This document shows positions 43,144 to 64,000 of a DNA stretch of 64,000 bases, one piece after another. The DNA lies in NCBI RefSeq assembly GCF_002854065.1, contig NZ_CP024147.1. One strand, 5' to 3'. This DNA comes from Escherichia coli. GTDB lineage: Bacteria > Pseudomonadota > Gammaproteobacteria > Enterobacterales > Enterobacteriaceae. Under the pieces are notes generated by a model. That model saw only the letters and a list, made by a program, of their open reading frames with translations. It searched no databases and was not told where the DNA came from. The translations under genes were made by a program, and so were the position numbers. Numbering within the stretch: position 1 is the first letter of the stretch; each line of letters starts with the position of its first letter.

Positions 43144-45342
43144 ATGTCGACTCCTGACAATCACGGCAAGAAAGCCCCTCAATTTGCTGCGTTCAAACCG
43201 CTAACCACGGTACAGAACGCCAACGACTGTTGCTGCGACGGCGCATGTTCCAGCACGCCAACGCTCTCTGAAAACGTCTCCGGCACCCGCTATAGCTGGA
43301 AAGTCAGCGGCATGGACTGCGCCGCCTGTGCGCGCAAGGTAGAAAATGCCGTGCGCCAGCTTGCAGGCGTGAATCAGGTGCAGGTACTGTTCGCCACCGA
43401 AAAACTGGTGGTCGATGCCGACAATGACATCCGTGCACAAGTTGAATCTGCGGTGCAAAAAGCGGGCTATTCCCTGCGCGATGAACAGTCCGCCGAAGAA
43501 CCGCAAGCATCACGCCTGAAAGAGAATTTGTCGCTGATTACGCTAATCGTGATGATGGTAATCAGCTGGGGTCTGGAGCAGTTCAATCATCCGTTTGGGC
43601 AACTGGCGTTTATCGCGACCACGCTGGTTGGGCTGTACCCGATTGCTCGTCAGGCATTACGGCTGATCAAATCAGGCAGTTACTTCGCCATTGAAACGTT
43701 AATGAGCGTAGCTGCTATTGGTGCGCTGTTTATTGGCGCAACGGCTGAAGCTGCGATGGTGTTGCTGCTGTTTTTGATTGGTGAACGACTGGAAGGCTGG
43801 GCCGCCAGCCGCGCGCGTCAGGGCGTTAGCGCGTTAATGGCGCTGAAACCAGAAACCGCCACGCGCCTGCGTAACGGTGAGCGGGAAGAGGTGGCGATTA
43901 ACAGCCTGCGCCCTGGCGATGTGATTGAAGTCGCCGCAGGTGGACGTTTGCCTGCCGACGGTAAACTGCTCTCACCGTTTGCCAGTTTTGATGAAAGCGC
44001 CCTGACCGGCGAATCCATTCCGGTGGAGCGCGCAACGGGCGATAAAGTCCCTGCTGGTGCCACCAGCGTAGACCGTCTGGTGACGTTGGAAGTATTGTCA
44101 GAACCGGGAGCCAGCGCCATTGACCGGATTCTGAAACTGATCGAAGAAGCCGAAGAGCGTCGCGCTCCCATTGAGCGGTTTATCGACCGTTTCAGCCGTA
44201 TTTACACGCCAGCGATTATGGCCGTCGCCCTGCTGGTAACGCTGGTGCCGCCGCTGCTGTTTGCCGCCAGCTGGCAAGAGTGGATTTATAAAGGCCTGAC
44301 GCTGCTGCTGATTGGCTGCCCATGTGCGTTAGTTATCTCCACGCCCGCGGCGATTACCTCCGGGCTGGCAGCAGCGGCACGTCGTGGGGCGTTAATTAAA
44401 GGCGGTGCGGCGCTGGAGCAGCTAGGTCGTGTTACCCAGGTGGCGTTTGATAAAACCGGTACGCTGACCGTCGGTAAACCGCGCGTTACCGCGATTCATC
44501 CGGCAACGGGTATTAGTGAATCTGAACTGCTGACACTGGCGGCGGCGGTCGAGCAAGGCGCGACGCATCCACTGGCGCAGGCCATCGTGCGCGAAGCACA
44601 GGTTGCTGCACTCGCCATTCCCGCCGCCGAATCACAGCGGGCGCTGGTCGGGTCTGGCATTGAAGCGCAGGTTAACGGTGAGCGCGTATTGATTTGCGCT
44701 GCCGGGAAACATCCCGCTGATGCATTTGCTGGTTTAATTAACGAACTGGAAAGCGCCGGGCAAACGGTAGTGCTGGTAGTACGTAACGATGACGTGCTTG
44801 GTGTCATTGCGTTACAGGATACCCTGCGCGCCGATGCTGCAACTGCCATCAGTGAACTGAACGCGCTGGGCGTCAAAGGGGTGATCCTCACCGGCGATAA
44901 TCCACGCGCAGCGGCGGCAATTGCCGGGGAGCTGGGGCTGGAGTTTAAAGCGGGCCTGTTGCCGGAAGATAAAGTCAAAGCGGTGACCGAGCTGAATCAA
45001 CATGCGCCGCTGGCGATGGTCGGTGACGGTATTAACGACGCGCCAGCGATGAAAGCTGCCGCCATCGGGATTGCTATGGGTAGCGGCACAGACGTGGCGC
45101 TGGAAACCGCCGACGCAGCATTAACCCATAACCACCTGCGCGGTCTGGTGCAAATGATTGAACTGGCACGTGCAACTCACGCCAATATCCGCCAGAACAT
45201 CACTATTGCGCTGGGGCTGAAAGGGATCTTCCTCGTCACCACGCTGTTAGGAATGACCGGACTATGGCTGGCGGTGCTGGCAGATACGGGTGCGACGGTG
45301 CTGGTGACAGCGAATGCGTTAAGATTGTTGCGCAGGAGATAA
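43144..45342 (+). CDS. zntA: Zn/Cd/Pb-exporting P1B-type ATPase
   Basis: 732-aa ORF; N-terminal metal-binding GMDCAAC, CPC motif (IGCPCALV), phosphorylation site DKTGTLT. Confidence 0.95.
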   Translation: MSTPDNHGKKAPQFAAFKPLTTVQNANDCCCDGACSSTPTLSENVSGTRYSWKVSGMDCAACARKVENAVRQLAGVNQVQVLFATEKLVVDADNDIRAQVESAVQKAGYSLRDEQSAEEPQASRLKENLSLITLIVMMVISWGLEQFNHPFGQLAFIATTLVGLYPIARQALRLIKSGSYFAIETLMSVAAIGALFIGATAEAAMVLLLFLIGERLEGWAASRARQGVSALMALKPETATRLRNGEREEVAINSLRPGDVIEVAAGGRLPADGKLLSPFASFDESALTGESIPVERATGDKVPAGATSVDRLVTLEVLSEPGASAIDRILKLIEEAEERRAPIERFIDRFSRIYTPAIMAVALLVTLVPPLLFAASWQEWIYKGLTLLLIGCPCALVISTPAAITSGLAAAARRGALIKGGAALEQLGRVTQVAFDKTGTLTVGKPRVTAIHPATGISESELLTLAAAVEQGATHPLAQAIVREAQVAALAIPAAESQRALVGSGIEAQVNGERVLICAAGKHPADAFAGLINELESAGQTVVLVVRNDDVLGVIALQDTLRADAATAISELNALGVKGVILTGDNPRAAAAIAGELGLEFKAGLLPEDKVKAVTELNQHAPLAMVGDGINDAPAMKAAAIGIAMGSGTDVALETADAALTHNHLRGLVQMIELARATHANIRQNITIALGLKGIFLVTTLLGMTGLWLAVLADTGATVLVTANALRLLRRR

Positions 45343-45348
45343 GGCAAA

Positions 45349-45412
45349 CCGATCGCAACATTGAGCGCGATCGGTCCCCTCGCTCCTCTGGGGAGAGGGT
45401 TAGGGTGAGGGG
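45349..45412. repeat. intergenic hairpin plus G-rich palindromic repeat between zntA and tusA
   Basis: Arms ccgatcgc/gcgatcgg, then cccctcgctcctctggggagagggttagggtgagggg; a spurious ORF across it translates to LTLTLSPEERG. Confidence 0.4.
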
Positions 45413-45443
45413 AAAAGGCGGCATCGAAGCCAATCTGCCCCCA

Positions 45444-45689
45444 TCAACCACCTTTACGAATCAAATAACGATAAGGCAGTCCATCCGTCTCTTTGGCAAC
45501 CAGTTCGTGTTCCATAAAGGTACAAAACCCAGGGATATCGCGGGTCGTCGCCGGATCGTCAGCAATAATCAGCAACGTTTCACCTGGCTGCATATTGCGC
45601 ACTGTTTTGCGCACCATCATTACTGGTTCCGGGCAGCGCAGGCCAAGTGCGTCGAGTGTGTGGTCAGGGCTGGAAAAGAGATCGGTCAT
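45444..45689 (-). CDS. tusA: sulfur carrier protein (tRNA 2-thiouridine synthesis)
   Basis: 81-aa [28 protein letters not shown] (conserved CPxP cysteine). Confidence 0.95.
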
Positions 45690-45909
45690 TTTCTTCTCAT
45701 CACATAAAAAAACGGCGCTAGTTTACGCCCTGTGAGTCCGTAAGCAAACCAGGTTAACGATTGCGTAAAAATTAACCATTGCATTGTCAACGTAAAGCAG
45801 TATCATGCGGCGGCTCGAAAAAAGGGTAAGCACGTTATTATGTTAAGGTAACAGACGTGTCGTACGTATTGGGTTCCCTCACCCCAATGGTTAATCAAAA
45901 AGGTACAAT

Positions 45910-46575
45910 ATGAACGTTTTCTCGCAAACTCAACGCTATAAAGCGTTGTTCTGGTTATCGTTATTTCATCTGCTGGTGATCACCTCCAGTAACTATCTGG
46001 TTCAGCTTCCCGTCTCCATTTTTGGTTTCCATACCACCTGGGGCGCGTTTAGCTTTCCGTTTATCTTTCTCGCTACCGACCTGACCGTACGTATTTTTGG
46101 CGCACCGCTGGCCCGTCGTATCATCTTTGCGGTGATGATCCCGGCATTGCTGATCTCCTACGTCATCTCGTCGCTATTCTATATGGGTTCATGGCAGGGA
46201 TTCGGCGCACTCGCCCACTTCAACCTGTTTGTCGCCCGTATCGCCACCGCCAGTTTCATGGCCTACGCGCTGGGACAGATCCTCGACGTGCACGTTTTTA
46301 ACCGCCTGCGTCAGAGTCGCCGCTGGTGGCTGGCACCGACAGCGTCCACACTGTTCGGTAACGTCAGCGACACGCTGGCCTTTTTCTTCATTGCCTTCTG
46401 GCGTAGCCCGGATGCCTTTATGGCTGAACACTGGATGGAAATCGCGCTGGTCGATTACTGTTTCAAAGTGTTAATCAGTATCGTTTTCTTCCTGCCAATG
46501 TATGGCGTATTACTCAATATGCTGTTGAAAAGACTGGCAGATAAATCCGAAATCAACGCTTTGCAGGCGAGTTAA
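45910..46575 (+). CDS. yhhQ: queuosine-precursor transporter family membrane protein
   Basis: 221-aa polytopic ORF MNVFSQTQRYKALFWLSLFHLLV... Confidence 0.9.
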   Translation: MNVFSQTQRYKALFWLSLFHLLVITSSNYLVQLPVSIFGFHTTWGAFSFPFIFLATDLTVRIFGAPLARRIIFAVMIPALLISYVISSLFYMGSWQGFGALAHFNLFVARIATASFMAYALGQILDVHVFNRLRQSRRWWLAPTASTLFGNVSDTLAFFFIAFWRSPDAFMAEHWMEIALVDYCFKVLISIVFFLPMYGVLLNMLLKRLADKSEINALQAS

Positions 46576-46647
46576 AGGTTCGTTATCAGAGTTGTGATAA
46601 GATGGATGAATGAGCCGTTATGGCCGTTTATCGAAAGGAAGAAGTCA

Positions 46648-47205
46648 ATGCGCAATCTGGTTAAATATGTCGGAATTGGCCTGCTGGTTATGGGGCTTGC
46701 GGCCTGTGATGATAAAGACACTAACGCTACGGCGCAGGGTTCGGTCGCGGAAAGTAACGCTACCGGGAATCCCGTCAACCTGCTTGATGGCAAGTTAAGT
46801 TTCTCGCTGCCAGCGGATATGACCGACCAGAGCGGTAAGCTGGGAACGCAGGCCAATAACATGCATGTCTGGTCCGACGCCACCGGTCAGAAAGCAGTCA
46901 TCGTCATCATGGGCGATGATCCGAAAGAAGATCTGGCGGTGCTGGCGAAGCGTCTGGAAGATCAGCAACGTAGCCGCGATCCGCAGCTGCAAGTGGTAAC
47001 CAATAAAGCCATTGAGCTGAAAGGTCACAAAATGCAGCAGTTAGACAGTATTATCTCCGCGAAAGGCCAGACGGCGTACTCTTCCGTTATTCTGGGTAAC
47101 GTGGGTAATCAACTGCTAACCATGCAAATTACGCTGCCAGCTGACGATCAGCAAAAAGCGCAGACAACCGCAGAAAACATCATTAATACGCTGGTTATTC
47201 AGTAA
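46648..47205 (+). CDS. dcrB: periplasmic lipoprotein DcrB
   Basis: ORF 46594..47205; ATG at 46648 gives [20 protein letters not shown] (lipobox). Confidence 0.9.
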
Positions 47206-47208
47206 GTT

Positions 47209-48426
47209 TTAAGATGATGAGGCGGCCTCAGGGACGTGTTCCGGAGGCCGTTTTTTTAATCGCCACGTCAGTAATAACGCGATTGCGACCAGTCCCGCCG
47301 CCGCCAGATAAATCACCGGTACGCCCGCCCAGCTCATCACCAGCCCAGCCAGTGGTCCGGTCACGCCAAGCGATAAATCCATAAATACGGTGTAAGTTGC
47401 CAGCGCCGCCCCCTGATTTTGCTGCGGAACCGCTTTTACCGCCACTACACCCAATGCCGGGAACACCAGCGAAAACCCGGCCCCCGCCAGTAAGACGCCG
47501 ATTTTCGCCATCCACGGCATAGTCGCCACGCCAACCAGTAGCAGGCCGATTATCTCAACGCTAAAGCAAATCATCGCTACGTTTAAGCCGCCGATACGGT
47601 TAATGCCGTTAGGGAATAACAAACGCGTACCGACAAACGCACAGCTAAACAGCGTCAGCGCGAAAGCCGCACCGTCCCAACCTTTAGCGTCATAAAACAG
47701 CGTGATAAAGGTGGCGATGACGCCAAATCCGGCGGAAGCCAACGCCAGCGCCATACCGTATAGCCAGACGCGCCCAAGCACCGCGCGAAACGGCAGCGGT
47801 TTGCCTTTACTGGCTTTTACCGTCGGACGCGGGATCGCCAACAAAATGGCCACCAGCGCCACGGCCATAATGATTAACGCTAACGCCTGCAAGCCGCCCC
47901 AGTGATAAAACACGACACCTAACGGCGCACCCATCGCCATCGCCCCATAAGTGACAATACCGTTCCACGAAATCACCCGTCCGATATGCAGCGAGCCAAC
48001 CACGCCAACGCCCCACAGGGTCGATCCCGTTCCGGCAAAACTTTGCCCAATCCCAAGGATGACGCGTCCCAGGCAAAGTAATAACAGGCTGATGACGGGC
48101 AGACTGGCGGTTAATCCTGCCGTCAGATATCCCAGACCGCTCAAAAAGCAGCCGCATAAACCGAAGACGACAATCTTTTTGGGGCCCAGCAAATCGGCGT
48201 AACGTCCGGCATGAGGACGGCTCAGCAAGGTGGCAAAATATTGCAGGCTGATAACCAATCCTGCCCAGAAAGCGCTAAAGCCCATCACATCATGGACATA
48301 GCCCGGTAATACAGCGAGCGGCAACCCGATGGTGAGGTAGCTGGCGAAGTTAAACATGACAATGGAGACAATGCGCAAATTCAGGCGCAATCCGTTTAGC
48401 GCGGGTTCGGCTACGGGTTCGGGCAT
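47209..48426 (-). CDS. yhhS: MFS transporter
   Basis: ORF 47209..48468; ATG at 48424-48426 gives MPEPVAEPALNGLRLNLRIVSIVMFNF; 12 predicted TM segments. Confidence 0.9.
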   Translation of the reverse strand: MPEPVAEPALNGLRLNLRIVSIVMFNFASYLTIGLPLAVLPGYVHDVMGFSAFWAGLVISLQYFATLLSRPHAGRYADLLGPKKIVVFGLCGCFLSGLGYLTAGLTASLPVISLLLLCLGRVILGIGQSFAGTGSTLWGVGVVGSLHIGRVISWNGIVTYGAMAMGAPLGVVFYHWGGLQALALIIMAVALVAILLAIPRPTVKASKGKPLPFRAVLGRVWLYGMALALASAGFGVIATFITLFYDAKGWDGAAFALTLFSCAFVGTRLLFPNGINRIGGLNVAMICFSVEIIGLLLVGVATMPWMAKIGVLLAGAGFSLVFPALGVVAVKAVPQQNQGAALATYTVFMDLSLGVTGPLAGLVMSWAGVPVIYLAAAGLVAIALLLTWRLKKRPPEHVPEAASSS

Positions 48427-48557
48427 GAGGATCACCACATTTTTACAACAGTGTTTCATTTTTACCACGTGCTGACGTGAAAATCAGCAGTAAGAATCAG
48501 AATATTGCTGGCGTGACTCCCGCTACACTTAATACAAAAAGTCACAAGGAAGCCCCA

Positions 48558-49607
48558 ATGGAAACCCCTCAACCCGATAAAACGGGCATGCACATTCTGC
48601 TCAAGCTGGCCTCGCTGGTAGTGATCCTGGCGGGCATTCACGCAGCGGCAGATATCATTGTGCAGCTGTTACTGGCGCTGTTTTTTGCCATCGTCCTCAA
48701 CCCGCTCGTCACCTGGTTTATTCGTCGGGGAGTACAACGCCCCGTTGCCATTACGATTGTAGTGGTGGTGATGCTGATCGCACTAACCGCGCTGGTCGGC
48801 GTACTGGCGGCATCGTTTAACGAATTTATCTCTATGCTGCCGAAGTTTAATAAGGAGCTGACGCGCAAACTTTTTAAATTGCAGGAGATGTTGCCTTTTC
48901 TTAATTTGCATATGTCGCCGGAGCGAATGCTGCAGCGGATGGACTCGGAAAAAGTGGTTACCTTCACCACGGCGCTAATGACCGGGCTTTCCGGGGCAAT
49001 GGCGAGCGTGCTTTTGCTGGTGATGACCGTAGTTTTTATGCTGTTTGAAGTGCGCCACGTCCCTTACAAAATGCGTTTTGCGCTGAATAACCCACAGATT
49101 CACATCGCAGGATTACACCGCGCACTTAAAGGCGTTTCGCATTATCTGGCGTTAAAGACGCTACTCAGTTTATGGACAGGTGTCATCGTCTGGCTGGGGC
49201 TGGAGCTGATGGGGGTGCAGTTTGCGCTGATGTGGGCAGTACTGGCGTTTTTGCTTAACTACGTGCCCAATATCGGCGCGGTAATTTCCGCCGTACCGCC
49301 AATGATTCAGGTGCTGCTGTTTAATGGTATTTACGAATGTATTCTGGTCGGCGCATTGTTTTTAGTTGTCCATATGGTCATCGGCAATATTTTAGAGCCA
49401 CGGATGATGGGCCATCGCCTGGGGATGTCCACCATGGTGGTATTTCTTTCATTGTTAATTTGGGGATGGCTGCTCGGCCCGGTAGGGATGCTACTTTCGG
49501 TGCCATTAACCAGCGTGTGTAAAATCTGGATGGAAACGACGAAAGGCGGTAGCAAACTGGCGATTTTACTGGGGCCGGGCAGACCGAAAAGTCGGTTACC
49601 GGGTTAA
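48558..49607 (+). CDS. yhhT: AI-2E/PerM-family transporter
   Basis: ORF 48477..49607; ATG at 48558 (RBS aagga) gives METPQPDKTGMHILLKLASLVV. Confidence 0.9.
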   Translation: METPQPDKTGMHILLKLASLVVILAGIHAAADIIVQLLLALFFAIVLNPLVTWFIRRGVQRPVAITIVVVVMLIALTALVGVLAASFNEFISMLPKFNKELTRKLFKLQEMLPFLNLHMSPERMLQRMDSEKVVTFTTALMTGLSGAMASVLLLVMTVVFMLFEVRHVPYKMRFALNNPQIHIAGLHRALKGVSHYLALKTLLSLWTGVIVWLGLELMGVQFALMWAVLAFLLNYVPNIGAVISAVPPMIQVLLFNGIYECILVGALFLVVHMVIGNILEPRMMGHRLGMSTMVVFLSLLIWGWLLGPVGMLLSVPLTSVCKIWMETTKGGSKLAILLGPGRPKSRLPG

Positions 49608-49626
49608 TAGCACCTCCTGAGCAGGC

Positions 49627-49657
49627 AATGGCCACCGTTTATCTAACAGTGGCCATT
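49627..49657 (+). terminator. yhhT terminator hairpin
   Basis: Arms aatggccac (49627-49635) and gtggccatt (49649-49657), followed by tgatttg. Confidence 0.45.
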
Positions 49658-49659
49658 TG

Positions 49660-49986
49660 ATTTGAGGAAATGATGAAACATTATTCAGAAAATTAATTTA
49701 AAAAAACCATTCCTTAAGTCAAATATATATAAACGCCGAATAGCGATTAAATCCTTCTCAAAGAATGCACTGATAACATTGTGTTATTTTTATTGCCTCA
49801 TTTTTCTCACTCACTTATAGTTGGTCCCTGCTGGCAGTAATTTAGTCATTTCAGAGATTTTTACTCTGATGTGCACTTACTGACTTATCTCACAAGTAAT
49901 TTTTTCTCTAAATAAAGAATAGTGATGCCAGCAATTACAGTTAAATCTTGCTTTACTCGTAAAAACAATACTTTAATGGGGTTCTA
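49660..49986. other. AT-rich junction between core (yhhT) and accessory cluster; probable island boundary and cluster promoter
   Basis: Visibly AT-rich (long A/T runs), no ORFs in any frame, immediately precedes the first cluster gene. Confidence 0.6.
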
Positions 49987-50376
49987 ATGAGACATTACAT
50001 GAAGTGGTTTGCGGCTATTGCTGTTGTGGGTGCTTTAGCAGGTTGCGCGCGTACTGCGCCAATTGATCAGGTTCACTCAACCGTCAGCGCTGGTCATACC
50101 CAGGAACAAGTGAAAAAAGCGATTCTGAAAGCTGGCGTTGAACGCAAATGGATTATGTCCGAAGCCGGACAAGGCATAATTAAAGCACGTCAACAGTCAC
50201 GCGATCATTCAGCGGAAATACGCATTAACTACACGGCATCCAGCTACGATATCAATTATGAAAATAGCCAGAACCTACAAGCGTCAGGCGGACAAATTCA
50301 TAAAAACTACAATCGCTGGGTCCGCAATCTCGACAAAGATATTCAACTGAATTTGTCAGCGGGCGCAGATTTATAA
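49987..50376 (+). CDS. small lipoprotein, first gene of the APE-type cluster
   Basis: 129-aa ORF MRHYMKWFAAIAVVGALAGC (signal peptide plus lipobox); alternative start 49999; lower GC than downstream genes. Confidence 0.7.
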   Translation: MRHYMKWFAAIAVVGALAGCARTAPIDQVHSTVSAGHTQEQVKKAILKAGVERKWIMSEAGQGIIKARQQSRDHSAEIRINYTASSYDINYENSQNLQASGGQIHKNYNRWVRNLDKDIQLNLSAGADL

Positions 50377-51543: not shown

Positions 51544-52266
51544 ATGAAATTTACATTAAATATTACCGACTGGCAGGCACTGGCGCCTGGACTTAGCGAA
51601 GCGCAGCAATGGCAAGCATGGTCGCGCCAGCCGTGGGCGATTGACCCTGCCGCGCCGTTGGCAAAATTAAGTGAACTGCCAATGATGACCGCCCGCCGCC
51701 TCAGTTCAGGCAGCAAACTGGCTGTTGAATGCGGTCTGGCAATGCTACGCCGCCATCAGCCAGACGCCGTTTTGTATACCAGTCGTCATGGCGAACTGGA
51801 GCGCAATTACCGCATTGTTCATGCACTGGCAACCGAACAGGCGCTTTCTCCGACGGACTTCGCGCTCTCCGTACACAACTCTTCCGTGGGTAACCTGACC
51901 ATTGCGGCCAAACAGCCGATCGTTTCGTCATCGCTTTCGGCTGGTCGCGACACTTTCCAGCAAGGTTTGTGTGAAGTGCTTAGTCTGTTACAGGCGGGCT
52001 ACCAGCGCGTGTTGATGGTCGATTTTGATGGCTTTCTGCCTGAGTTCTATCATCCACAACTGCCCGCAGAAATGCCGACCTGGCCGTACGCCGTCGCGCT
52101 GGTGATTGAAGCTGGCGATGAGTGGCAATGTGGAACGCAGTCAGCCATTGCGGGTAATGAAACAACACTGCCGCAAAGCATGTTGTTTTTACAGCACTAT
52201 TTACAAAATGCGGACACATTTTCACTGCCTGGCGAGCGCGTACAGTGGCGCTGGAGCCGTGGATGA
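51544..52266 (+). CDS. apeC: short KS-like partner protein (chain-length-factor-like)
   Basis: ORF 51520..52266 (TTG); ATG at 51544 gives MKFTLNITDWQALAPG; about 240 aa, far shorter than a full KAS; ATGA overlap with the next gene. Confidence 0.6.
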   Translation: MKFTLNITDWQALAPGLSEAQQWQAWSRQPWAIDPAAPLAKLSELPMMTARRLSSGSKLAVECGLAMLRRHQPDAVLYTSRHGELERNYRIVHALATEQALSPTDFALSVHNSSVGNLTIAAKQPIVSSSLSAGRDTFQQGLCEVLSLLQAGYQRVLMVDFDGFLPEFYHPQLPAEMPTWPYAVALVIEAGDEWQCGTQSAIAGNETTLPQSMLFLQHYLQNADTFSLPGERVQWRWSRG

Positions 52267-53084
52267 GTAAGCTGCTGTCACGTCTGGAGTGGACCTGGCG
52301 ACTGGTCATGACCGGGTTATGTTTTGCCCTGTTTGGTCTCGGCGGCCTGCTGCTTTCTGTCGTGTGGTTTAACATATTGTTAGTTTTGGTGTGGGATACT
52401 TCCCGCCGCCGTCGTTTGGCGCGTCGCAGCATTGCCGCCAGTTTTCGCCTGTTTTTAACTGTCGCGAAAGGGCTTGGCGTGCTGGATTATCGTATTGATG
52501 GCGCTGAAATTTTACGTCAGGAACGCGGTTGCCTCGTCGTAGCCAATCATCCCACGCTGATCGATTACGTGCTGCTGGCGTCAGTCATGCCAGAAACTGA
52601 CTGCCTGGTGAAAAGCGCGCTGTTAAAAAATCCTTTTCTTGGCGGCGTCGTGCGGGCGGCAGATTATTTAATCAACAGCGAAGCTGAAACCCTGTTACCC
52701 CGCTGCCAACAGCGACTGGCACAGGGTGACACTATCCTGATTTTCCCCGAAGGCACGCGAACGAAGCCCGGTGAAAAAATGACGCTGCAGCGCGGGGCGG
52801 CGAATATTGCCGTGCGCTGTGCCAGCGATTTACGCATCGTGACGATCGGCTGTAGCGAGCATCTGCTGGATAAACAAAGTAAATGGTATGACGTTCCACC
52901 TGACCGGCCGTTTTTTACGGTTGCAGTCCATGGTCGGGTTGAAATCAATAAATTTTACGATGCAACTTCACAAGAACCGGCGCTGGCAGCAAGGCAGTTA
53001 AACCGGCATCTTTTGCTTCAATTACAACAAGGTTGTTTACCTCTCTCAGGAATAAATAATGCAAGCGCTTTATCTGGAAATTAA
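52263..53084 (+). CDS. lysophospholipid/glycerol-3-phosphate acyltransferase family protein
   Basis: ORF 52245..53084; HX4D motif NHPTLIDY and FPEGTRT motif; start chosen at the ATGA overlap (52263). Confidence 0.75.
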   Translation: MSKLLSRLEWTWRLVMTGLCFALFGLGGLLLSVVWFNILLVLVWDTSRRRRLARRSIAASFRLFLTVAKGLGVLDYRIDGAEILRQERGCLVVANHPTLIDYVLLASVMPETDCLVKSALLKNPFLGGVVRAADYLINSEAETLLPRCQQRLAQGDTILIFPEGTRTKPGEKMTLQRGAANIAVRCASDLRIVTIGCSEHLLDKQSKWYDVPPDRPFFTVAVHGRVEINKFYDATSQEPALAARQLNRHLLLQLQQGCLPLSGINNASALSGN

Positions 53085-53316
53085 AAACCTCATCATCAGC
53101 ACCCTCAATCTGGACGAGTTGACGCCTGATGATATCGATACCGACGCGCCGCTGTTTGGCGACGGTTTAGGGCTGGACTCTATCGATGCCCTGGAACTGG
53201 GACTGGCAGTAAAAAATGAGTACGGCATCGTGCTCTCTGCGGAAAGCGAAGAGATGCGTCAGCACTTTTTCTCCGTCGCCACTCTGGCCTCTTTCATTGC
53301 TGCGCAACGTGCCTGA
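53059..53316 (+). CDS. apeE: acyl carrier protein
   Basis: 85-aa acidic ORF with phosphopantetheine-site motif LGLDSIDALEL. Confidence 0.8.
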   Translation: MQALYLEIKNLIISTLNLDELTPDDIDTDAPLFGDGLGLDSIDALELGLAVKNEYGIVLSAESEEMRQHFFSVATLASFIAAQRA

Positions 53317-53327
53317 GGAAAGCCATC

Positions 53328-53579
53328 ATGACAGAACAACAAACCGTCTATCAGGAAGTCTCAGCCCTGCTGGTTAAGCTGTTTGAAATCGATCCGCAGG
53401 ACATCAAACCTGAAGCGCGCCTGTACGAAGATCTGGAACTGGACAGCATCGACGCCGTTGACATGATTGTGCACCTGCAAAAGAAAACCGGTAAGAAAAT
53501 CAAGCCGGAAGAGTTTAAAGCAGTGCGTACAGTCCAGGATGTCGTCGAGGCTGTAGAACGCCTGCTACAAGAAGCCTGA
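53328..53579 (+). CDS. apeF: acyl carrier protein
   Basis: 83-aa ORF with LELDSIDAVDM motif. Confidence 0.8.
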   Translation: MTEQQTVYQEVSALLVKLFEIDPQDIKPEARLYEDLELDSIDAVDMIVHLQKKTGKKIKPEEFKAVRTVQDVVEAVERLLQEA

Positions 53580-53583
53580 TCTG

Positions 53584-54165
53584 ATGTCGGGCATTCGCTC
53601 GCTACCGATGATTAAGCTGCTGACTGGATTATTGCTGCTCGCCTGGCCGTTTGTGATTTGGTTTGGCTTAGCGCATAACGGCCTGCACTGGCTGTTGCCG
53701 CTAATAGCGTTGCTGCTTTTGTTGCGCCTGCGCCAGACCCGTCGCCAGGCGGGGCCGCTCCAGGTCGTCACACAAATCGTCGCTGTCGTGGGCATCGCAT
53801 TATGTGTCGCCAGCGTTCTGTTGAAAACACACCAGCTACTGCTGTTTTACCCGGTAGTGGTTAACGCGGTCATGCTGGCGGTTTTTGGCGGTTCGCTGTG
53901 GTCGGCAATGCCGATAGTTGAGCGGCTGGCGCGTTTGCAGGAGCCAGATCTGCCGGAAAAGGGCATGCGCTATACCCGCCGCGTCACGCAAATCTGGTGC
54001 GGCTTTTTCATCATCAACGGTGGAATTGCCCTCTTTACCGCGCTTTATGCCGATATGTCGTTATGGACCGCCTGGAACGGCATGATTGCTTATTTGTTGA
54101 TGGGAACATTAATGGCTGGTGAATGGCTGGTGCGCCGTCAGGTGATGAAAAGAGATCGCGCATGA
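53584..54165 (+). CDS. integral membrane protein of unknown function
   Basis: 193-aa ORF with several hydrophobic segments (LLLAWPFVIWFGL, VVGIALCVASVLL, ...). Confidence 0.65.
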   Translation: MSGIRSLPMIKLLTGLLLLAWPFVIWFGLAHNGLHWLLPLIALLLLLRLRQTRRQAGPLQVVTQIVAVVGIALCVASVLLKTHQLLLFYPVVVNAVMLAVFGGSLWSAMPIVERLARLQEPDLPEKGMRYTRRVTQIWCGFFIINGGIALFTALYADMSLWTAWNGMIAYLLMGTLMAGEWLVRRQVMKRDRA

Positions 54166-55523: not shown

Positions 55524-55863
55524 AATCGAGCGCCATCAGGCACAAACGAATCACCTTGAAATTGTTCTGCATCTCAGGGCGGATCTGTTCTGGTTTCGCG
55601 GTCATTTTGCCGTGCAACCATTACTCCCAGGAGTTGCGCAAATCGACTGGGCGATGAGCTACGCGCTCAATCTGCTCGCGCCTGGCTGGCGTTTTCACTC
55701 CATTCAGAACATAAAATTCCAGTCTCCGTTGCTGCCGGAAAACCGCGTCACGCTCGCGCTTAACTGGCAGGAAGAACGCCAGATTCTGAGCTTTAGCTAT
55801 CAGCGTCACGACGGTGACGCCCGCCACACCGCCAGTAGCGGGAAGATCCGCCTATGTCGGTAA
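55510..55863 (+). CDS. apeI: hotdog-fold (3R)-hydroxyacyl-ACP dehydratase-like protein
   Basis: ORF 55480..55863; FabA/FabZ-like motif GHFAVQPLLPGV; start 55510 overlaps the upstream gene. Confidence 0.7.
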   Translation: MKPHEIERHQAQTNHLEIVLHLRADLFWFRGHFAVQPLLPGVAQIDWAMSYALNLLAPGWRFHSIQNIKFQSPLLPENRVTLALNWQEERQILSFSYQRHDGDARHTASSGKIRLCR

Positions 55864-57530
55864 ACTTTTCTCCCTGCGTGTTGATTCCCTGCTATAACCA
55901 CGGCGCGATGATGCCGGGCGTGCTGGCGCGTCTTAAGCCATTTAATCTCCCCTGTATTGTGGTGGACGACGGCAGCGATGCCGCCACGCAACAGCAACTG
56001 GATAATCTGGTTAGCGAACAGCCTGGCGTGACCTTAATTCGCTTAGCAGAAAACGCAGGTAAAGGCGCGGCAGTGATGCGTGGCTTACAGGCAGCGGCAG
56101 ACGCAGGGTTCAGCCATGCGGTGCAGGTGGATGCTGACGGTCAACATGCGATTGAAGATATCCCCAAACTGCTGGCACTCGCTGAACGACACCCTGCGGC
56201 GCTGATCTCCGGCCAGCCAATTTACGATGACTCCATCCCCCGCTCACGGCTTTACGGGCGCTGGGTCACCCACGTCTGGGTATGGATCGAAACGCTCTCC
56301 CTGCAACTGAAAGACAGCATGTGCGGCTTTCGCGTTTATCCGGTTGCGCCAACGCTGCAACTGGCAAAACACGCCACCATCGGCAAGCGGATGGATTTCG
56401 ACACTGAAGTGATGGTGCGCCTCTACTGGCAGGGAAACACCAGCTATTTCGTGCCGACCCGCGTCACCTATCCACTGGACGGGCTTTCGCATTTTGATGC
56501 CCTGAAAGATAACGTCCGCATCTCGCTCATGCACACGCGTCTGTTTTTCGGCATGTTACCGCGTATTCCTTCACTGCTGATGCGCCGCTCTTCCAGCCAC
56601 TGGGCGCGGCAGAGTGAAGTGAAAGGATTATGGGGAATGCGCCTGATGCTGCTGGTCTGGCGTCTGCTGGGAAGAACGGCGTTTAGCGCGCTGCTTTACC
56701 CGGTGGTGGGCGTCTACTGGCTCACTGCTTCTCGTGCGCGCAAAGCGTCGCAAGACTGGCTCGCCCGTGTACGACAGCATCAACCACAGGCGGCAAAACT
56801 CAACAGCTATCAGCACTTTCTACGTTTCGGTAATGCCATGCTCGACAAAATCGCCAGTTGGCGCGGCGAGCTGCAACTGGGGCGCGATGTGCTGTTTGCG
56901 CCAGGCGCAGAAGCGGCACTTAACGTCAGCGATCCGCGCGGCAAATTGCTGCTGGCCTCGCATCTTGGCGATGTGGAAGTGTGCCGGGCGCTGGCAAAAA
57001 TTCAGGGCTACAAAACCATTAACGCGCTGGTGTTTAGCGAAAACGCCCAACGCTTTAAACAGATAATGCAGGAGATGGCCCCGCAGGCCGGCATCAACCT
57101 GATGCCGGTAACGGATATCGGCCCGGAAACCGCCATCCTGCTCAAAGAGAAGCTGGATAACGGCGAATGGGTGGCGATTGTCGGTGACCGCATCGCCGTC
57201 AACCCGCAACGCGGCGGCGACTGGCGCGTCTGCTGGAGTCCGTTTATGGGCCAGCCTGCGCCCTTCCCACAGGGGCCGTTTATTCTCGCGTCTATTTTGC
57301 GCTGCCCGGTGAATCTGATTTTCGCCCTGCGCCAGCACGGCAAGCTGCATATTCACTGCGAAACCTTTGCCGACCCGCTGCTGTTGCCGCGTGGCGAACG
57401 CCAACAGGCGCTGCAAAACGCTATCGACCACTACGCCGCGCGTCTGGAACATTACGCGCTCCAGTCGCCCCTCGACTGGTTTAATTTTTTCGATTTCTGG
57501 CAACTGCCGGAAATTCAGGACAAGGAGTAA
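55854..57530 (+). CDS. bifunctional GT2 glycosyltransferase / lipid-A-type acyltransferase-like protein
   Basis: 558 aa; N-terminus CVLIPCYNHG...VVDDGSDA...DADGQH (GT-A DxD); C-terminal half resembles HtrB/LpxL-type acyltransferases. Confidence 0.7.
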   Translation: MSVNFSPCVLIPCYNHGAMMPGVLARLKPFNLPCIVVDDGSDAATQQQLDNLVSEQPGVTLIRLAENAGKGAAVMRGLQAAADAGFSHAVQVDADGQHAIEDIPKLLALAERHPAALISGQPIYDDSIPRSRLYGRWVTHVWVWIETLSLQLKDSMCGFRVYPVAPTLQLAKHATIGKRMDFDTEVMVRLYWQGNTSYFVPTRVTYPLDGLSHFDALKDNVRISLMHTRLFFGMLPRIPSLLMRRSSSHWARQSEVKGLWGMRLMLLVWRLLGRTAFSALLYPVVGVYWLTASRARKASQDWLARVRQHQPQAAKLNSYQHFLRFGNAMLDKIASWRGELQLGRDVLFAPGAEAALNVSDPRGKLLLASHLGDVEVCRALAKIQGYKTINALVFSENAQRFKQIMQEMAPQAGINLMPVTDIGPETAILLKEKLDNGEWVAIVGDRIAVNPQRGGDWRVCWSPFMGQPAPFPQGPFILASILRCPVNLIFALRQHGKLHIHCETFADPLLLPRGERQQALQNAIDHYAARLEHYALQSPLDWFNFFDFWQLPEIQDKE

Positions 57531-57533
57531 AGG

Positions 57534-57956
57534 GTGCTTAACGATCCCCGATTTACCGCTGAAGTCGAGCTGACCATTCCCTTTCACGACGTCGATATGA
57601 TGGGCGTGGCCTGGCACGGTAACTATTTTCGCTACTTTGAAGTGGCCCGCGAGGCGCTGCTCAACCAGTTCAATTACGGCTATCGGCAGATGAAAGAGTC
57701 CGGTTATTTGTGGCCAGTGGTCGATGCGCGGGTGAAATATCGCCACGCCCTCACCTTTGAGCAACGCATCCGCGTGCGTGCGCATATCGAAGAGTTCGAA
57801 AACCGTCTGCGGATTGGCTATCAGATTTTCGATGCCGAAACGGGCAAACGCGCCACCACCGGATACACCATTCAGGTCGCGGTCGACGAGCAAAGTCGCG
57901 AACTGTGCTTTGTCAGCCCCGATATTCTGTTTGAACGCATGGGAGTCAAACCATGA
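57534..57956 (+). CDS. apeK: 4HBT/YbgC-type acyl thioesterase
   Basis: 140-aa ORF (GTG start); hotdog thioesterase pattern HDVDMMGVAWHGNYFRYFEVAR. Confidence 0.75.
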   Translation: MLNDPRFTAEVELTIPFHDVDMMGVAWHGNYFRYFEVAREALLNQFNYGYRQMKESGYLWPVVDARVKYRHALTFEQRIRVRAHIEEFENRLRIGYQIFDAETGKRATTGYTIQVAVDEQSRELCFVSPDILFERMGVKP

Positions 57957-63058: not shown

Positions 63059-63789
63059 TGAGTCGTTCAGTTCTGGTTACTGGTGCCAGCAAAGGCATTG
63101 GTCGCGCCATCGCCTGCCAACTGGCGGCAGACGGCTTTAACATTGGCGTTCACTATCACCGTGACGCCACAGGCGCTCAGGAAACGCTGAATGCCATTGT
63201 CGCCAACGGGGGTAACGGGCGTTTGCTCAGTTTCGACGTCGCAAACCGCGAACAGTGTCGGGAAGTGCTGGAGCATGAGATCGCGCAACACGGTGCCTGG
63301 TACGGCGTGGTCAGTAACGCCGGGATCGCCCGCGATGCCGCTTTTCCGGCTTTAAGCGATGACGACTGGGATGCGGTGATCCACACCAACCTCGACAGTT
63401 TCTACAACGTCATTCAGCCGTGCATTATGCCAATGATCGGCGCGCGCCAGGGTGGGCGCATCATCACGCTGTCCTCGGTTTCCGGCGTAATGGGCAATCG
63501 CGGCCAGGTGAATTACAGCGCAGCCAAAGCCGGAATTATCGGCGCAACTAAAGCGCTGGCTATCGAACTCGCGAAGCGCAAAATCACCGTCAACTGCATC
63601 GCGCCGGGGCTTATTGATACCGGGATGATCGAAATGGAAGAGAGCGCTCTGAAAGAGGCAATGTCGATGATCCCCATGAAACGTATGGGCCAGGCGGAAG
63701 AAGTTGCCGGGCTTGCCAGTTATTTAATGTCTGATATTGCGGGTTACGTCACCCGCCAGGTTATTTCCATCAACGGAGGGATGTTATGA
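63058..63789 (+). CDS. apeQ: 3-oxoacyl-ACP reductase (SDR, FabG-like)
   Basis: 243 aa; TGASKGIGRAIA NAD(P)-binding and YSAAKAG catalytic motifs. Confidence 0.88.
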   Translation: MSRSVLVTGASKGIGRAIACQLAADGFNIGVHYHRDATGAQETLNAIVANGGNGRLLSFDVANREQCREVLEHEIAQHGAWYGVVSNAGIARDAAFPALSDDDWDAVIHTNLDSFYNVIQPCIMPMIGARQGGRIITLSSVSGVMGNRGQVNYSAAKAGIIGATKALAIELAKRKITVNCIAPGLIDTGMIEMEESALKEAMSMIPMKRMGQAEEVAGLASYLMSDIAGYVTRQVISINGGML

Positions 63790-64000
63790 CACGTCGCGTA
63801 GTGATTACAGGAATGGGCGGCGTGACTGCCTTTGGTGAAAACTGGCAGGACGTTTCTGCACGCTTACTGGCGTATGAAAATGCGGTGCGCAAAATGCCGG
63901 AGTGGCAGGTCTACGATGGCCTGCACACCCTGCTTGGCGCGCCTGTTGATGATTTCACGCTACCGGAGCACTATACCCGCAAGCGTATCCGTGCGATGGG
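63786..64000 (+). CDS. apeR: beta-ketoacyl-ACP synthase (partial, N-terminal 71 codons; continues beyond window)
   Basis: ATG at 63786 (ATGA overlap with KR); MTRRVVITGMGGVTAFGENWQD (KAS N-terminus). Confidence 0.75.
   Translation, partial: MTRRVVITGMGGVTAFGENWQDVSARLLAYENAVRKMPEWQVYDGLHTLLGAPVDDFTLPEHYTRKRIRAM

Follow-up and report, generated by a model that had tools for sequence, protein, structure and literature searches.

Background

Aryl-polyene (APE) clusters are described as ranking with the most widespread biosynthetic clusters in Gram-negative bacteria. In uropathogenic E. coli they protect against oxidative stress, and they promote biofilm formation (literature including PMC8253772). 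One protein of the E. coli cluster, ApeJ, is annotated as 'glycosyltransferase/acyltransferase', and deletion of apeJ leaves the cells still partly pigmented, with a build-up of late intermediates (PMC8253772). In Xenorhabdus, the APE lipid is a 1-acyl-2-(conjugated acyl)-glycerol-3-phosphate-GalNAc in which an ester bond joins the aryl polyene to O-6 of the GalNAc, and deletion of apeJ leads to accumulation of acyl-cFA-glycerol-3-phosphate, which is of the phosphatidic acid type (bioRxiv 10.1101/2020.12.19.423268). The ApeJ of Xenorhabdus doucetiae, likewise the glycosyltransferase/acyltransferase of an APE cluster, and the ApeJ of E. coli CFT073 are together the closest known systems to the protein described here. 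The literature searched contained no report of ApeJ reconstituted in vitro.

Enzymes of known function also resemble each half of ApeJ. The nearest relatives of the glycosyltransferase half by sequence and fold are DPMS (5MLZ), GtrB (5EKP), ArnC (9BHC) and PpgS, all of which load a sugar onto a lipid phosphate, the sugar being GalNAc in the case of PpgS. For the acyltransferase half, the comparison is with LpxL and LpxM (PF03279; AbLpxM, 5KN7), which use acyl-ACP donors, and with PatA (PDB 5F2T, 5OCE), a mycobacterial phosphatidylinositol-mannoside acyltransferase. PatA acylates mannose O-6 via His126, with Glu200 as the charge-relay partner of this histidine, and has two N-terminal amphipathic helices (PMC8519569).

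The APE cluster and apeJ

The window analysed is a stretch of 64,000 nucleotides of E. coli DNA (assembly GCF_002854065.1, contig NZ_CP024147.1). It holds a complete APE cluster, in which apeJ is flanked by apeI and apeK; of 5426 complete E. coli genomes, 823 have the cluster. The gene order from apeB through apeQ is identical to that of CFT073; the flanks of the cluster are unlike those of CFT073. The neighbourhood was defined by a Pfam scan of 20 ORFs near apeJ, and the genes of concern here are:

52263..53084, + strand, apeD, PlsC-type acyltransferase (PF01553, E 1.3e-19)
53059..53316, + strand, apeE, acyl carrier protein (PF00550)
53328..53579, + strand, apeF, second acyl carrier protein (PF00550)
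55854..57530, + strand, apeJ, bifunctional glycosyltransferase/acyltransferase, 558-aa ORF with ATG start, stop codon included
57534..57956, + strand, apeK, 4HBT thioesterase immediately 3' of apeJ (PF13279)

The ORF at 55854..57530 is the apeJ of the E. coli APE cluster, a gene already described. Its product is identical to that of CFT073 C_RS05605 (c1194) at 547 of 558 positions (98%, no gaps); the two proteins are of equal length, are encoded between apeI and apeK in both strains, and have 11 amino-acid differences. The qPCR primers published for apeJ have perfect matches at 57017-57037 and 57145-57164. The start of apeJ has a 10-nt overlap with the stop of the upstream gene, which encodes the ApeI dehydratase, and the thioesterase gene begins 3 nt after the apeJ stop codon.

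The original prediction had also noted a separate glycerol-type acyltransferase at 52263-53084, and this is indeed a PlsC-type protein, the product of apeD. The start codon of apeD, at 52263, and the stop of apeC overlap in the sequence ATGA. The apeD CDS is 822 nt long, as in CFT073, and the published apeD primers match exactly here. Following the literature, the apeD product would make the lipid acceptor, and delivery of the aryl-polyene chain to ApeJ by the apeE carrier has been proposed in the same preprint (bioRxiv 10.1101/2020.12.19.423268).

The N-terminal glycosyltransferase domain

The 558-aa ORF was originally read as one protein with two domains, an N-terminal GT-A/GT2 domain and a C-terminal domain resembling lipid A late acyltransferases. 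Both halves, as well as the ORF itself, are supported. The features of the N-terminal half are:

55854..56588, + strand, GT2 (GT-A fold) domain of the lipid-phosphate glycosyltransferase type, residues 1-245 (PF00535)
55965..55976, + strand, DDGS nucleotide-binding motif, residues 38-41, aligning with VVDDDS of DPMS and IDDGS of ArnC
56130..56147, + strand, DADGQH, DxD metal-binding motif plus QH, residues 93-98, aligning with DADLQH of DPMS and DADLQN of ArnC

Residues 8-131 score 74.3 bits with PF00535 (E 1.5e-20), for which the cutoff is 23.3. The best NCBIfam match is PpgS (E 4.6e-14), at 52.4 bits against a cutoff of 370, and ArnC is likewise below its equivalog cutoff, at 24 against 529 bits. 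A sequence search of the PDB returned DPMS 5MLZ (E 2e-7), ArnC and GtrB, and the AlphaFold2 model of the domain matches the GT-A folds of GtrB, ArnC and DPMS in Foldseek at E about 1e-9. The motifs DDxS, NxGKG and DAD-x-QH are common to ApeJ and the four relatives; ApeJ carries both the NxGKG (N67-x-G69-K70-G71, conserved in the ApeJ family) and the DAD-x-Q(H/N) signatures. Across 47 fused homologues, D39 and G40 of the first motif and D93, D95, Q97 and H98 of the last are invariant. DDGSDA (residues 38-43) and DADGQH had both been called DxD motifs. That name fits D93-A-D95, which is a true DxD, and is loose for the former because DDGS is a distinct GT2 nucleotide-binding motif.

The ApeJ module differs from DPMS, GtrB, ArnC and PpgS in other respects as well. 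Where it occurs as a separate protein it lacks transmembrane helices of its own, unlike these enzymes, and a diacylglycerol phosphate has been proposed as the acceptor for ApeJ, in place of a polyprenyl phosphate.

The C-terminal acyltransferase domain

Standard annotation, with the product name 'glycosyltransferase family 2 protein' and a single Pfam domain, conceals the second half of ApeJ. Its features are:

56619..57527, + strand, divergent Lip_A_acyltrans (LpxL/LpxM/PatA, LPLAT) domain, residues 256-558, recognised from homologues, profile and fold
56619..56726, + strand, two hydrophobic/amphipathic helices, residues 256-291, from hydropathy and AlphaFold2
56961..56978, + strand, HLGDVE, HX4E catalytic motif, H370 to E375, aligning with PHFGTWE of LpxM
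57186..57191, + strand, D445-R446, aligning with D-H of LpxM

The Pfam domain search that had been suggested as a check gave the expected PF00535 match and no Lip_A_acyltrans match on ApeJ itself; no acyltransferase family was found at E<=1 for the full protein or at E<=0.1 for the C-terminal half. Pfam is blind to this domain in the E. coli sequence, so a naive test would return 'single domain' and wrongly refute a correct idea. A single-sequence search of the PDB with residues 340-558 found nothing meaningful. The sole curated match of the C-terminal half is the PatA NCBIfam model (E 0.0068), at 15.5 against 209 bits, and the domain falls under every curated family threshold.

Homologues, profiles and structure identify the family. 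PF03279 is matched by 68 of 76 homologues that are 32-48% identical (best E 2.9e-19), and with a profile of the family LpxM 5KN7 is reached at E 5.4e-8 and PatA at E 0.03. The LpxL/LpxM family is the best sequence-profile match, with SHLGNxE aligned to PHFGTWE and GDR to PDH. The AlphaFold2 model of ApeJ has a mean pLDDT of 89.7, and in a Foldseek search of the PDB its C-terminal half is closest in fold to PatA (E 5.5e-10, TM 0.68-0.69), with LpxM at E 5.8e-9. Matches of profile A2 to DARPin and ankyrin sequences (E about 4e-5, in the SHLGNxE region) were rejected as compositional resemblance to the ankyrin consensus; with the trimmed profile A3 they were lost and the PatA alignment was exposed.

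The catalytic residues are strongly conserved: H370 and D445-R446 are present in all 76 sequences, E or D is found at position 375 in 75 of them, and G372 is invariant. ApeJ and PatA, which are about 17% identical, have the catalytic histidine in common, and a weak profile match (E 0.3) pairs D445-R446 with E200-R201 of PatA, placing the acidic D445 opposite Glu200. Hydropathy peaks at residues 263-293, where AlphaFold2 predicts helices at 256-272 and 274-291, and the segment 256-291 is also borne by stand-alone acyltransferase homologues. These helices are likely to be a membrane anchor of the acyltransferase module, for which the paired helices of PatA are a precedent (PMC8519569); both enzymes would then have N-terminal helices for membrane association. 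PatA is a stand-alone enzyme, whereas ApeJ is fused and retains the LpxM-type HX4E glutamate. The donor is palmitoyl-CoA for PatA, and an ACP-bound aryl polyene is proposed for ApeJ.

A proposed role for the two domains

The gene identity, both domains, the conserved catalytic residues and the fusion junction described below are established in this analysis. It is likely that ApeJ is a membrane-associated protein whose two catalytic modules complete the APE lipid on the cytoplasmic side of the inner membrane. The GT2 module (residues 1-245) would first use a UDP-sugar as HexNAc donor and glycosylate the phosphatidic-acid-type product of ApeD at its phosphate, giving a phosphatidyl-HexNAc; in Xenorhabdus the sugar is GalNAc. 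This step is suggested by the domain type and the Xenorhabdus knockout, and its chemistry would be akin to that of DPMS, GtrB, ArnC and PpgS. The LpxL/LpxM/PatA-type module (residues 256-558) would then shift the aryl-polyene chain from ApeE to the 6-OH of the sugar, with His370 as the putative general base, backed by Glu375 and/or Asp445. The parallel to this second step is acylation of a hexose 6-OH on a phospholipid head group, known for PatA and proposed for ApeJ. The finished lipid would be exported by ApeL, ApeM and ApeN. We infer which domain performs which step, the order of the steps, the donor substrates and the sharing of the Xenorhabdus head group by E. coli.

The original suggestion that the polyketide chain is attached to a glycosylated or lipid head group agrees with both the Xenorhabdus structure and the published annotation of ApeJ. 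The head group in E. coli may differ, with the same two types of step applied to GlcNAc in place of GalNAc or to a different acceptor lipid. The E. coli APE lipid has no solved structure in the literature (PMC8253772), which leaves room for such a variant. It is nonetheless unlikely, as the clusters of the two genera are described as highly similar (bioRxiv 10.1101/2020.12.19.423268) and the catalytic motifs are all conserved across the ApeJ family.

Another route would have the GT2 module charge a polyprenyl phosphate, for example undecaprenyl phosphate, with HexNAc, and another enzyme move the sugar to the lipid; ApeJ would therefore have no part in direct phospholipid glycosylation. That DPMS, GtrB, ArnC and PpgS, its closest characterised relatives, all act on polyprenyl phosphate and not on a glycerophospholipid speaks for this route, and against the direct mechanism. 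However, the Pfam scan of neighbouring ORFs shows the APE cluster to be without a GT-C type partner or a flippase, and ApeJ falls far short of the equivalog cutoffs, with 52 of the 370 bits required for PpgS and 24 of the 529 for ArnC. In the Xenorhabdus product the sugar sits on the glycerolipid's own phosphate, and it is exactly that phosphatidic-acid-type lipid that accumulates on deletion of apeJ (bioRxiv 10.1101/2020.12.19.423268). The polyprenyl-phosphate route is thus improbable, and direct glycosylation of the glycerolipid is the preferred reading.

The second module could also be a genuine lipid A late acyltransferase, placing the aryl polyene or another acyl chain onto lipid A. For E. 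coli this idea came first, before the lipid structure was known (PMC8253772), and it is in keeping with membership of the Lip_A_acyltrans superfamily and with LpxM as the best sequence-profile match. In contrast, the Xenorhabdus lipid has no lipid A part (bioRxiv 10.1101/2020.12.19.423268), the closest fold is that of PatA, which acylates the 6-OH of a hexose on a phospholipid, and the module always accompanies the GT2 gene within APE clusters. The acceptor of ApeJ is almost certainly not lipid A, and the lipid A reading is very improbable. ApeJ also differs from LpxL and LpxM in that the E. coli sequence itself falls short of the Pfam model. Against the preferred reading it counts that the C-terminal domain is below curated thresholds and that the alignment of D445 with Glu200 is the weak one given above.

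The linkage of the sugar raises a conflict. GT2 enzymes are inverting (CAZy). An inverting GT2 acting on a UDP-alpha-sugar would not be expected to give an alpha-linked GalNAc, yet the GalNAc-1-phosphate of the Xenorhabdus APE lipid is reported to be alpha, with a J1,2 of 2.8 Hz (bioRxiv 10.1101/2020.12.19.423268). It is possible, as a tentative proposal, that the ApeJ GT2 is a DPMS-type enzyme whose acceptor has switched from polyprenyl phosphate to a glycerophospholipid phosphate, and that it forms alpha-linked phosphatidyl-HexNAc with net retention. AglK, a Dpm1-like GT2, reportedly makes alpha-linked Dol-P-GlcNAc; papers citing the AglK work confirm only that it is a GT2 enzyme producing Dol-P-GlcNAc. 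If the proposal for ApeJ is true, it would mean retention within a family regarded as inverting, and the interconversion of fused, split and ApeH-I-J forms would mark a tightly channelled assembly line.

By the proposed steps, a soluble pigment acid would become a membrane lipid through the action of ApeJ. No new biology is claimed, because the gene, its two-domain annotation, the knockout phenotype and the structure of the product in a sister genus are already published. Added here are the junction at residues 246-255, the split and further-fused forms, and the conflict between an alpha-GalNAc and an inverting GT2.

The fusion junction and separable modules

The two modules meet at a short linker:

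56589..56618, + strand, fusion junction/linker, residues 246-255, with low pLDDT and the ends of split genes

The lowest pLDDT of the ApeJ model is found here, with residues 250-256 below 50. In split clusters, the glycosyltransferase gene ends and the acyltransferase gene begins at this junction, and the stand-alone glycosyltransferase aligns to residues 1-245. In two syntenic APE clusters (L001 and L005) the halves are adjacent, overlapping, separate genes. These pairs, of a GT2 and a 'predicted LPLAT superfamily acyltransferase', are orthologous modules in the same position, 54-56% and 31-47% identical to those of ApeJ. In another cluster (L003) the ApeJ halves are further fused with ApeH and ApeI. 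The modules of ApeJ are therefore separable, being split in the former two clusters and fused further in the latter.

That the fusion is an artefact, from a sequencing frameshift joining two genes or with a degenerate, inactive C-terminal half, might be suggested by the single domain detected by Pfam and the separate genes of many relatives, but can be dismissed: at least 80% of the query is covered in each of 822 E. coli records, with one CDS beneath this among the matches listed, a 558-aa CDS is likewise annotated in CFT073, 46 of the best 150 cluster representatives are fused, the catalytic residues are conserved, and the AlphaFold2 model is confident over both halves.

By size, 84 of those 150 representatives correspond to a stand-alone protein and 46 to a fusion. 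Whether fusion occurred once or many times was addressed with a neighbour-joining tree and Fitch parsimony, together with a nearest-neighbour test. The fusion and fission events are not countable, because a tree of representatives that are 35-50% identical is too weakly resolved. Architectures interleave on this tree, with 32 changes by Fitch parsimony against 37.7 with shuffled labels, and the nearest neighbour has the same architecture in 78 of 122 cases, against 53% by chance. Nearly all of the split and fused forms come from metagenomes, and one fused form is found in Opitutaceae bacterium TAV5.

Identity and context of apeJ

The predicted 558-aa ORF is present in the window, and a Pfam scan of 20 ORFs around it assigned the following neighbourhood (ranges, or positions where the scan placed a gene):

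49987-50376: 129-aa ORF, apeA position, without Pfam match
50436: O-methyltransferase
51520: chain-length-factor-type ketosynthase
52263: PlsC-type acyltransferase
53059 and 53328: two acyl carrier proteins
53584-54165: small membrane protein, apeG position, 193 aa; only sub-threshold Pfam match IspA (E 0.006)
54123: AMP-binding enzyme
55480: ApeI dehydratase
55854-57530 (+): apeJ, ATG start, 558 codons
57534: 4HBT thioesterase
57953: LolA-like protein
58527: MMPL transporter
60842: DUF3261 protein
61419: ketosynthase
62594: ApeP dehydratase
63058: ketoreductase

This gene set is an aryl polyene (APE) cluster, corresponding to 1143727-1158748 in E. coli CFT073, and its PlsC-type gene is the separate acyltransferase that had been proposed. 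The 558-aa ORF is apeJ, based on this cluster context, the 547 of 558 residues identical to the equally long CFT073 protein C_RS05605, and exact matches in the window to qPCR primers published for apeJ (c1194) and apeD (c1201). With a 10-nt overlap between its start and the 3' end of the preceding gene, and 3 nt between its stop and the next start, apeJ lies in a tightly packed operon. Several E. coli chromosomes carry the apeJ DNA at 100% identity, and it occurs in 823 of 5426 complete E. coli genomes; the RefSeq name for the ORF there is 'glycosyltransferase family 2 protein'. A 357-aa antisense ORF (56820-57893, -) within apeJ and apeK is probably a shadow ORF of GC-rich coding sequence.

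The apeA-position ORF has the length and position of the CFT073 'hypothetical protein' C_RS05650, which is listed as a lipoprotein in the literature. The apeG-position protein has been named a COG4648 'pyrophosphatase' membrane protein, a function for which the Pfam scan gave no support, IspA being its sole hit. The flanks of the cluster (43144-50376) are unlike those in CFT073 (L006/L007). Before apeA are an AI-2E transporter, an MFS transporter, a Vut_1 protein, and a heavy-metal P-type ATPase; the CFT073 cluster adjoins hemagglutinin/ShlB pseudogenes and an integrase- and IS-element-rich island. The last gene, the apeR ketosynthase (63786-64000), is cut by the window edge, so the cluster is incomplete here.

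The two modules of ApeJ

Residues 8-131 score 74.3 bits (E 1.5e-20) with Pfam Glycos_transf_2, above its cutoff of 23.3 bits, bearing out the N-terminal GT2 domain. Both of the DxD motifs originally proposed exist as sequences, DDGSDA (residues 38-43) and DADGQH (93-98), but only D93-A-D95 is a strict DxD; DDGS is a distinct nucleotide-binding motif of GT2 enzymes. The top curated family is PpgS, a polyprenyl-phospho-GalNAc synthase (E 4.6e-14, far under the equivalog cutoff), and sequence searches recovered no solved structures other than dolichol-phosphate mannose synthase (DPMS; E 2e-7), ArnC, and GtrB. In these alignments VVDDGS of ApeJ corresponds to VVDDDS, and VDADGQH to MDADLQH or LDADLQN. 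D39, G40, G69-K70-G71, D93, D95, Q97, and H98 are invariant across 47 fused homologues. Together, these matches and residues assign the N-terminal half to the GT2 branch that puts sugar on lipid phosphate.

Pfam, proposed as a check for both domains, matched no family in the C-terminal half itself, nor did a single-sequence PDB search with this domain find a match. The sole hint in the ApeJ sequence is a sub-threshold NCBIfam match (E 0.0068) to the family of PatA, the mycobacterial phosphatidylinositol-mannoside acyltransferase. The likeness to lipid A acyltransferases is seen via relatives. Scanning all 1.84 billion cluster representatives with residues 251-558 gave 2963 relatives (E<=1e-3). 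Lip_A_acyltrans is matched (best E 2.9e-19) by 68 of 76 aligned sequences, which comprise the query half and stand-alone relatives sharing 32-48% identity with it. The profile of this alignment matches Acinetobacter LpxM (5KN7; E 5.4e-8) and PatA (E 0.03), aligning SHLGNxE with the catalytic PHFGTWE of LpxM.

An AlphaFold2 model of whole ApeJ (47 sequences, mean pLDDT 89.7, pTM 0.72) was compared with the PDB using Foldseek. PatA was top (E 5.5e-10, TM 0.68-0.69 on target) and LpxM next (E 5.8e-9); GtrB, ArnC, and DPMS matched the other half. H370, D445, and R446 are kept in all 76 sequences and E/D375 in 75. D445-R446 corresponds to E200-R201 of PatA in a trimmed profile alignment, and PatA Glu200 is the charge-relay partner of catalytic His126 (PMC8519569). 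By its conserved residues, the second domain of ApeJ, real and divergent, appears catalytically intact.

Function of ApeJ

The observation of a fused gene is confirmed and its reading supported, and both are already in the literature. Johnston et al. labelled ApeJ (c1194) 'glycosyltransferase / acyltransferase' and found that apeJ deletion partly keeps pigmentation while late intermediates pile up (PMC8253772). The predicted polyketide chain on a glycosylated lipid head group is found in the Xenorhabdus APE lipid solved by Grammbitter et al.: its glycerol-phosphate-GalNAc backbone bears a saturated acyl chain, a conjugated C26:5 acyl chain at sn-2 and, ester-linked at GalNAc C-6, the aryl polyene. 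Deletion of apeJ builds up acyl-cFA-glycerol-3-phosphate, and ApeJ was proposed to add GalNAc, then acylate it with ApeE-bound aryl polyene (bioRxiv 10.1101/2020.12.19.423268). A 2026 preprint leaves the annotation unchanged; the literature searched yielded no in vitro work on ApeJ.

The domain identities and catalytic residues come from the present analysis, and the phenotypes and product from the literature; we infer which domain does which step, the donors, and that the Xenorhabdus head group carries over to E. coli. The GT2 module would glycosylate the phosphate of the phosphatidic-acid-type lipid made by ApeD with HexNAc taken from a UDP-sugar, a reaction of the DPMS/PpgS type. The PatA/LpxM-type module would then ester-link the aryl polyene chain on ApeE to the sugar 6-OH, a regiochemistry shared with PatA, which acylates mannose O-6; His370 would be the general base, supported by Glu375 and/or Asp445.

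GT2 enzymes are inverting (CAZy), and a UDP-alpha-sugar should yield a beta product. The anomeric coupling of the Xenorhabdus lipid (J1,2 = 2.8 Hz; bioRxiv 10.1101/2020.12.19.423268), that of alpha-GalNAc-1-phosphate, is therefore at odds with an inverting GT2 enzyme. This is the sole point where something new might hide. AglK, a Dpm1-like GT2 enzyme, reportedly makes alpha-linked Dol-P-GlcNAc; papers citing that work bear out no more than its enzyme family and the name of its product.

Split and fused forms

In the syntenic APE clusters L001 and L005, stand-alone GT2 genes cover ApeJ residues 1-245 and neighbouring acyltransferase genes cover residues 246/249-558, the two genes of a pair being in different frames with a 4- or 11-nt overlap. 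Only at this junction, at residues 250-256, is the model of low confidence, and the hydrophobic helices at 256-291 are part of the acyltransferase module. By size, the best 150 cluster representatives include 84 stand-alone, 46 fused, and 6 larger proteins. Fused and split forms are intermixed on the domain tree, at a resolution too weak for counting events. In the cluster L003 (8001-11558), a larger form, one 1185-aa ORF, combines the AMP-binding enzyme (ApeH), ApeI dehydratase, GT2, and Lip_A_acyltrans, three adjacent ape genes being one protein. An APE-like cluster, L004 (1-14934), has long intergenic gaps and unusually long proteins: a 1208-aa ApeH/I, a 977-aa ApeJ-like protein, and an 1118-aa transporter without Pfam match.
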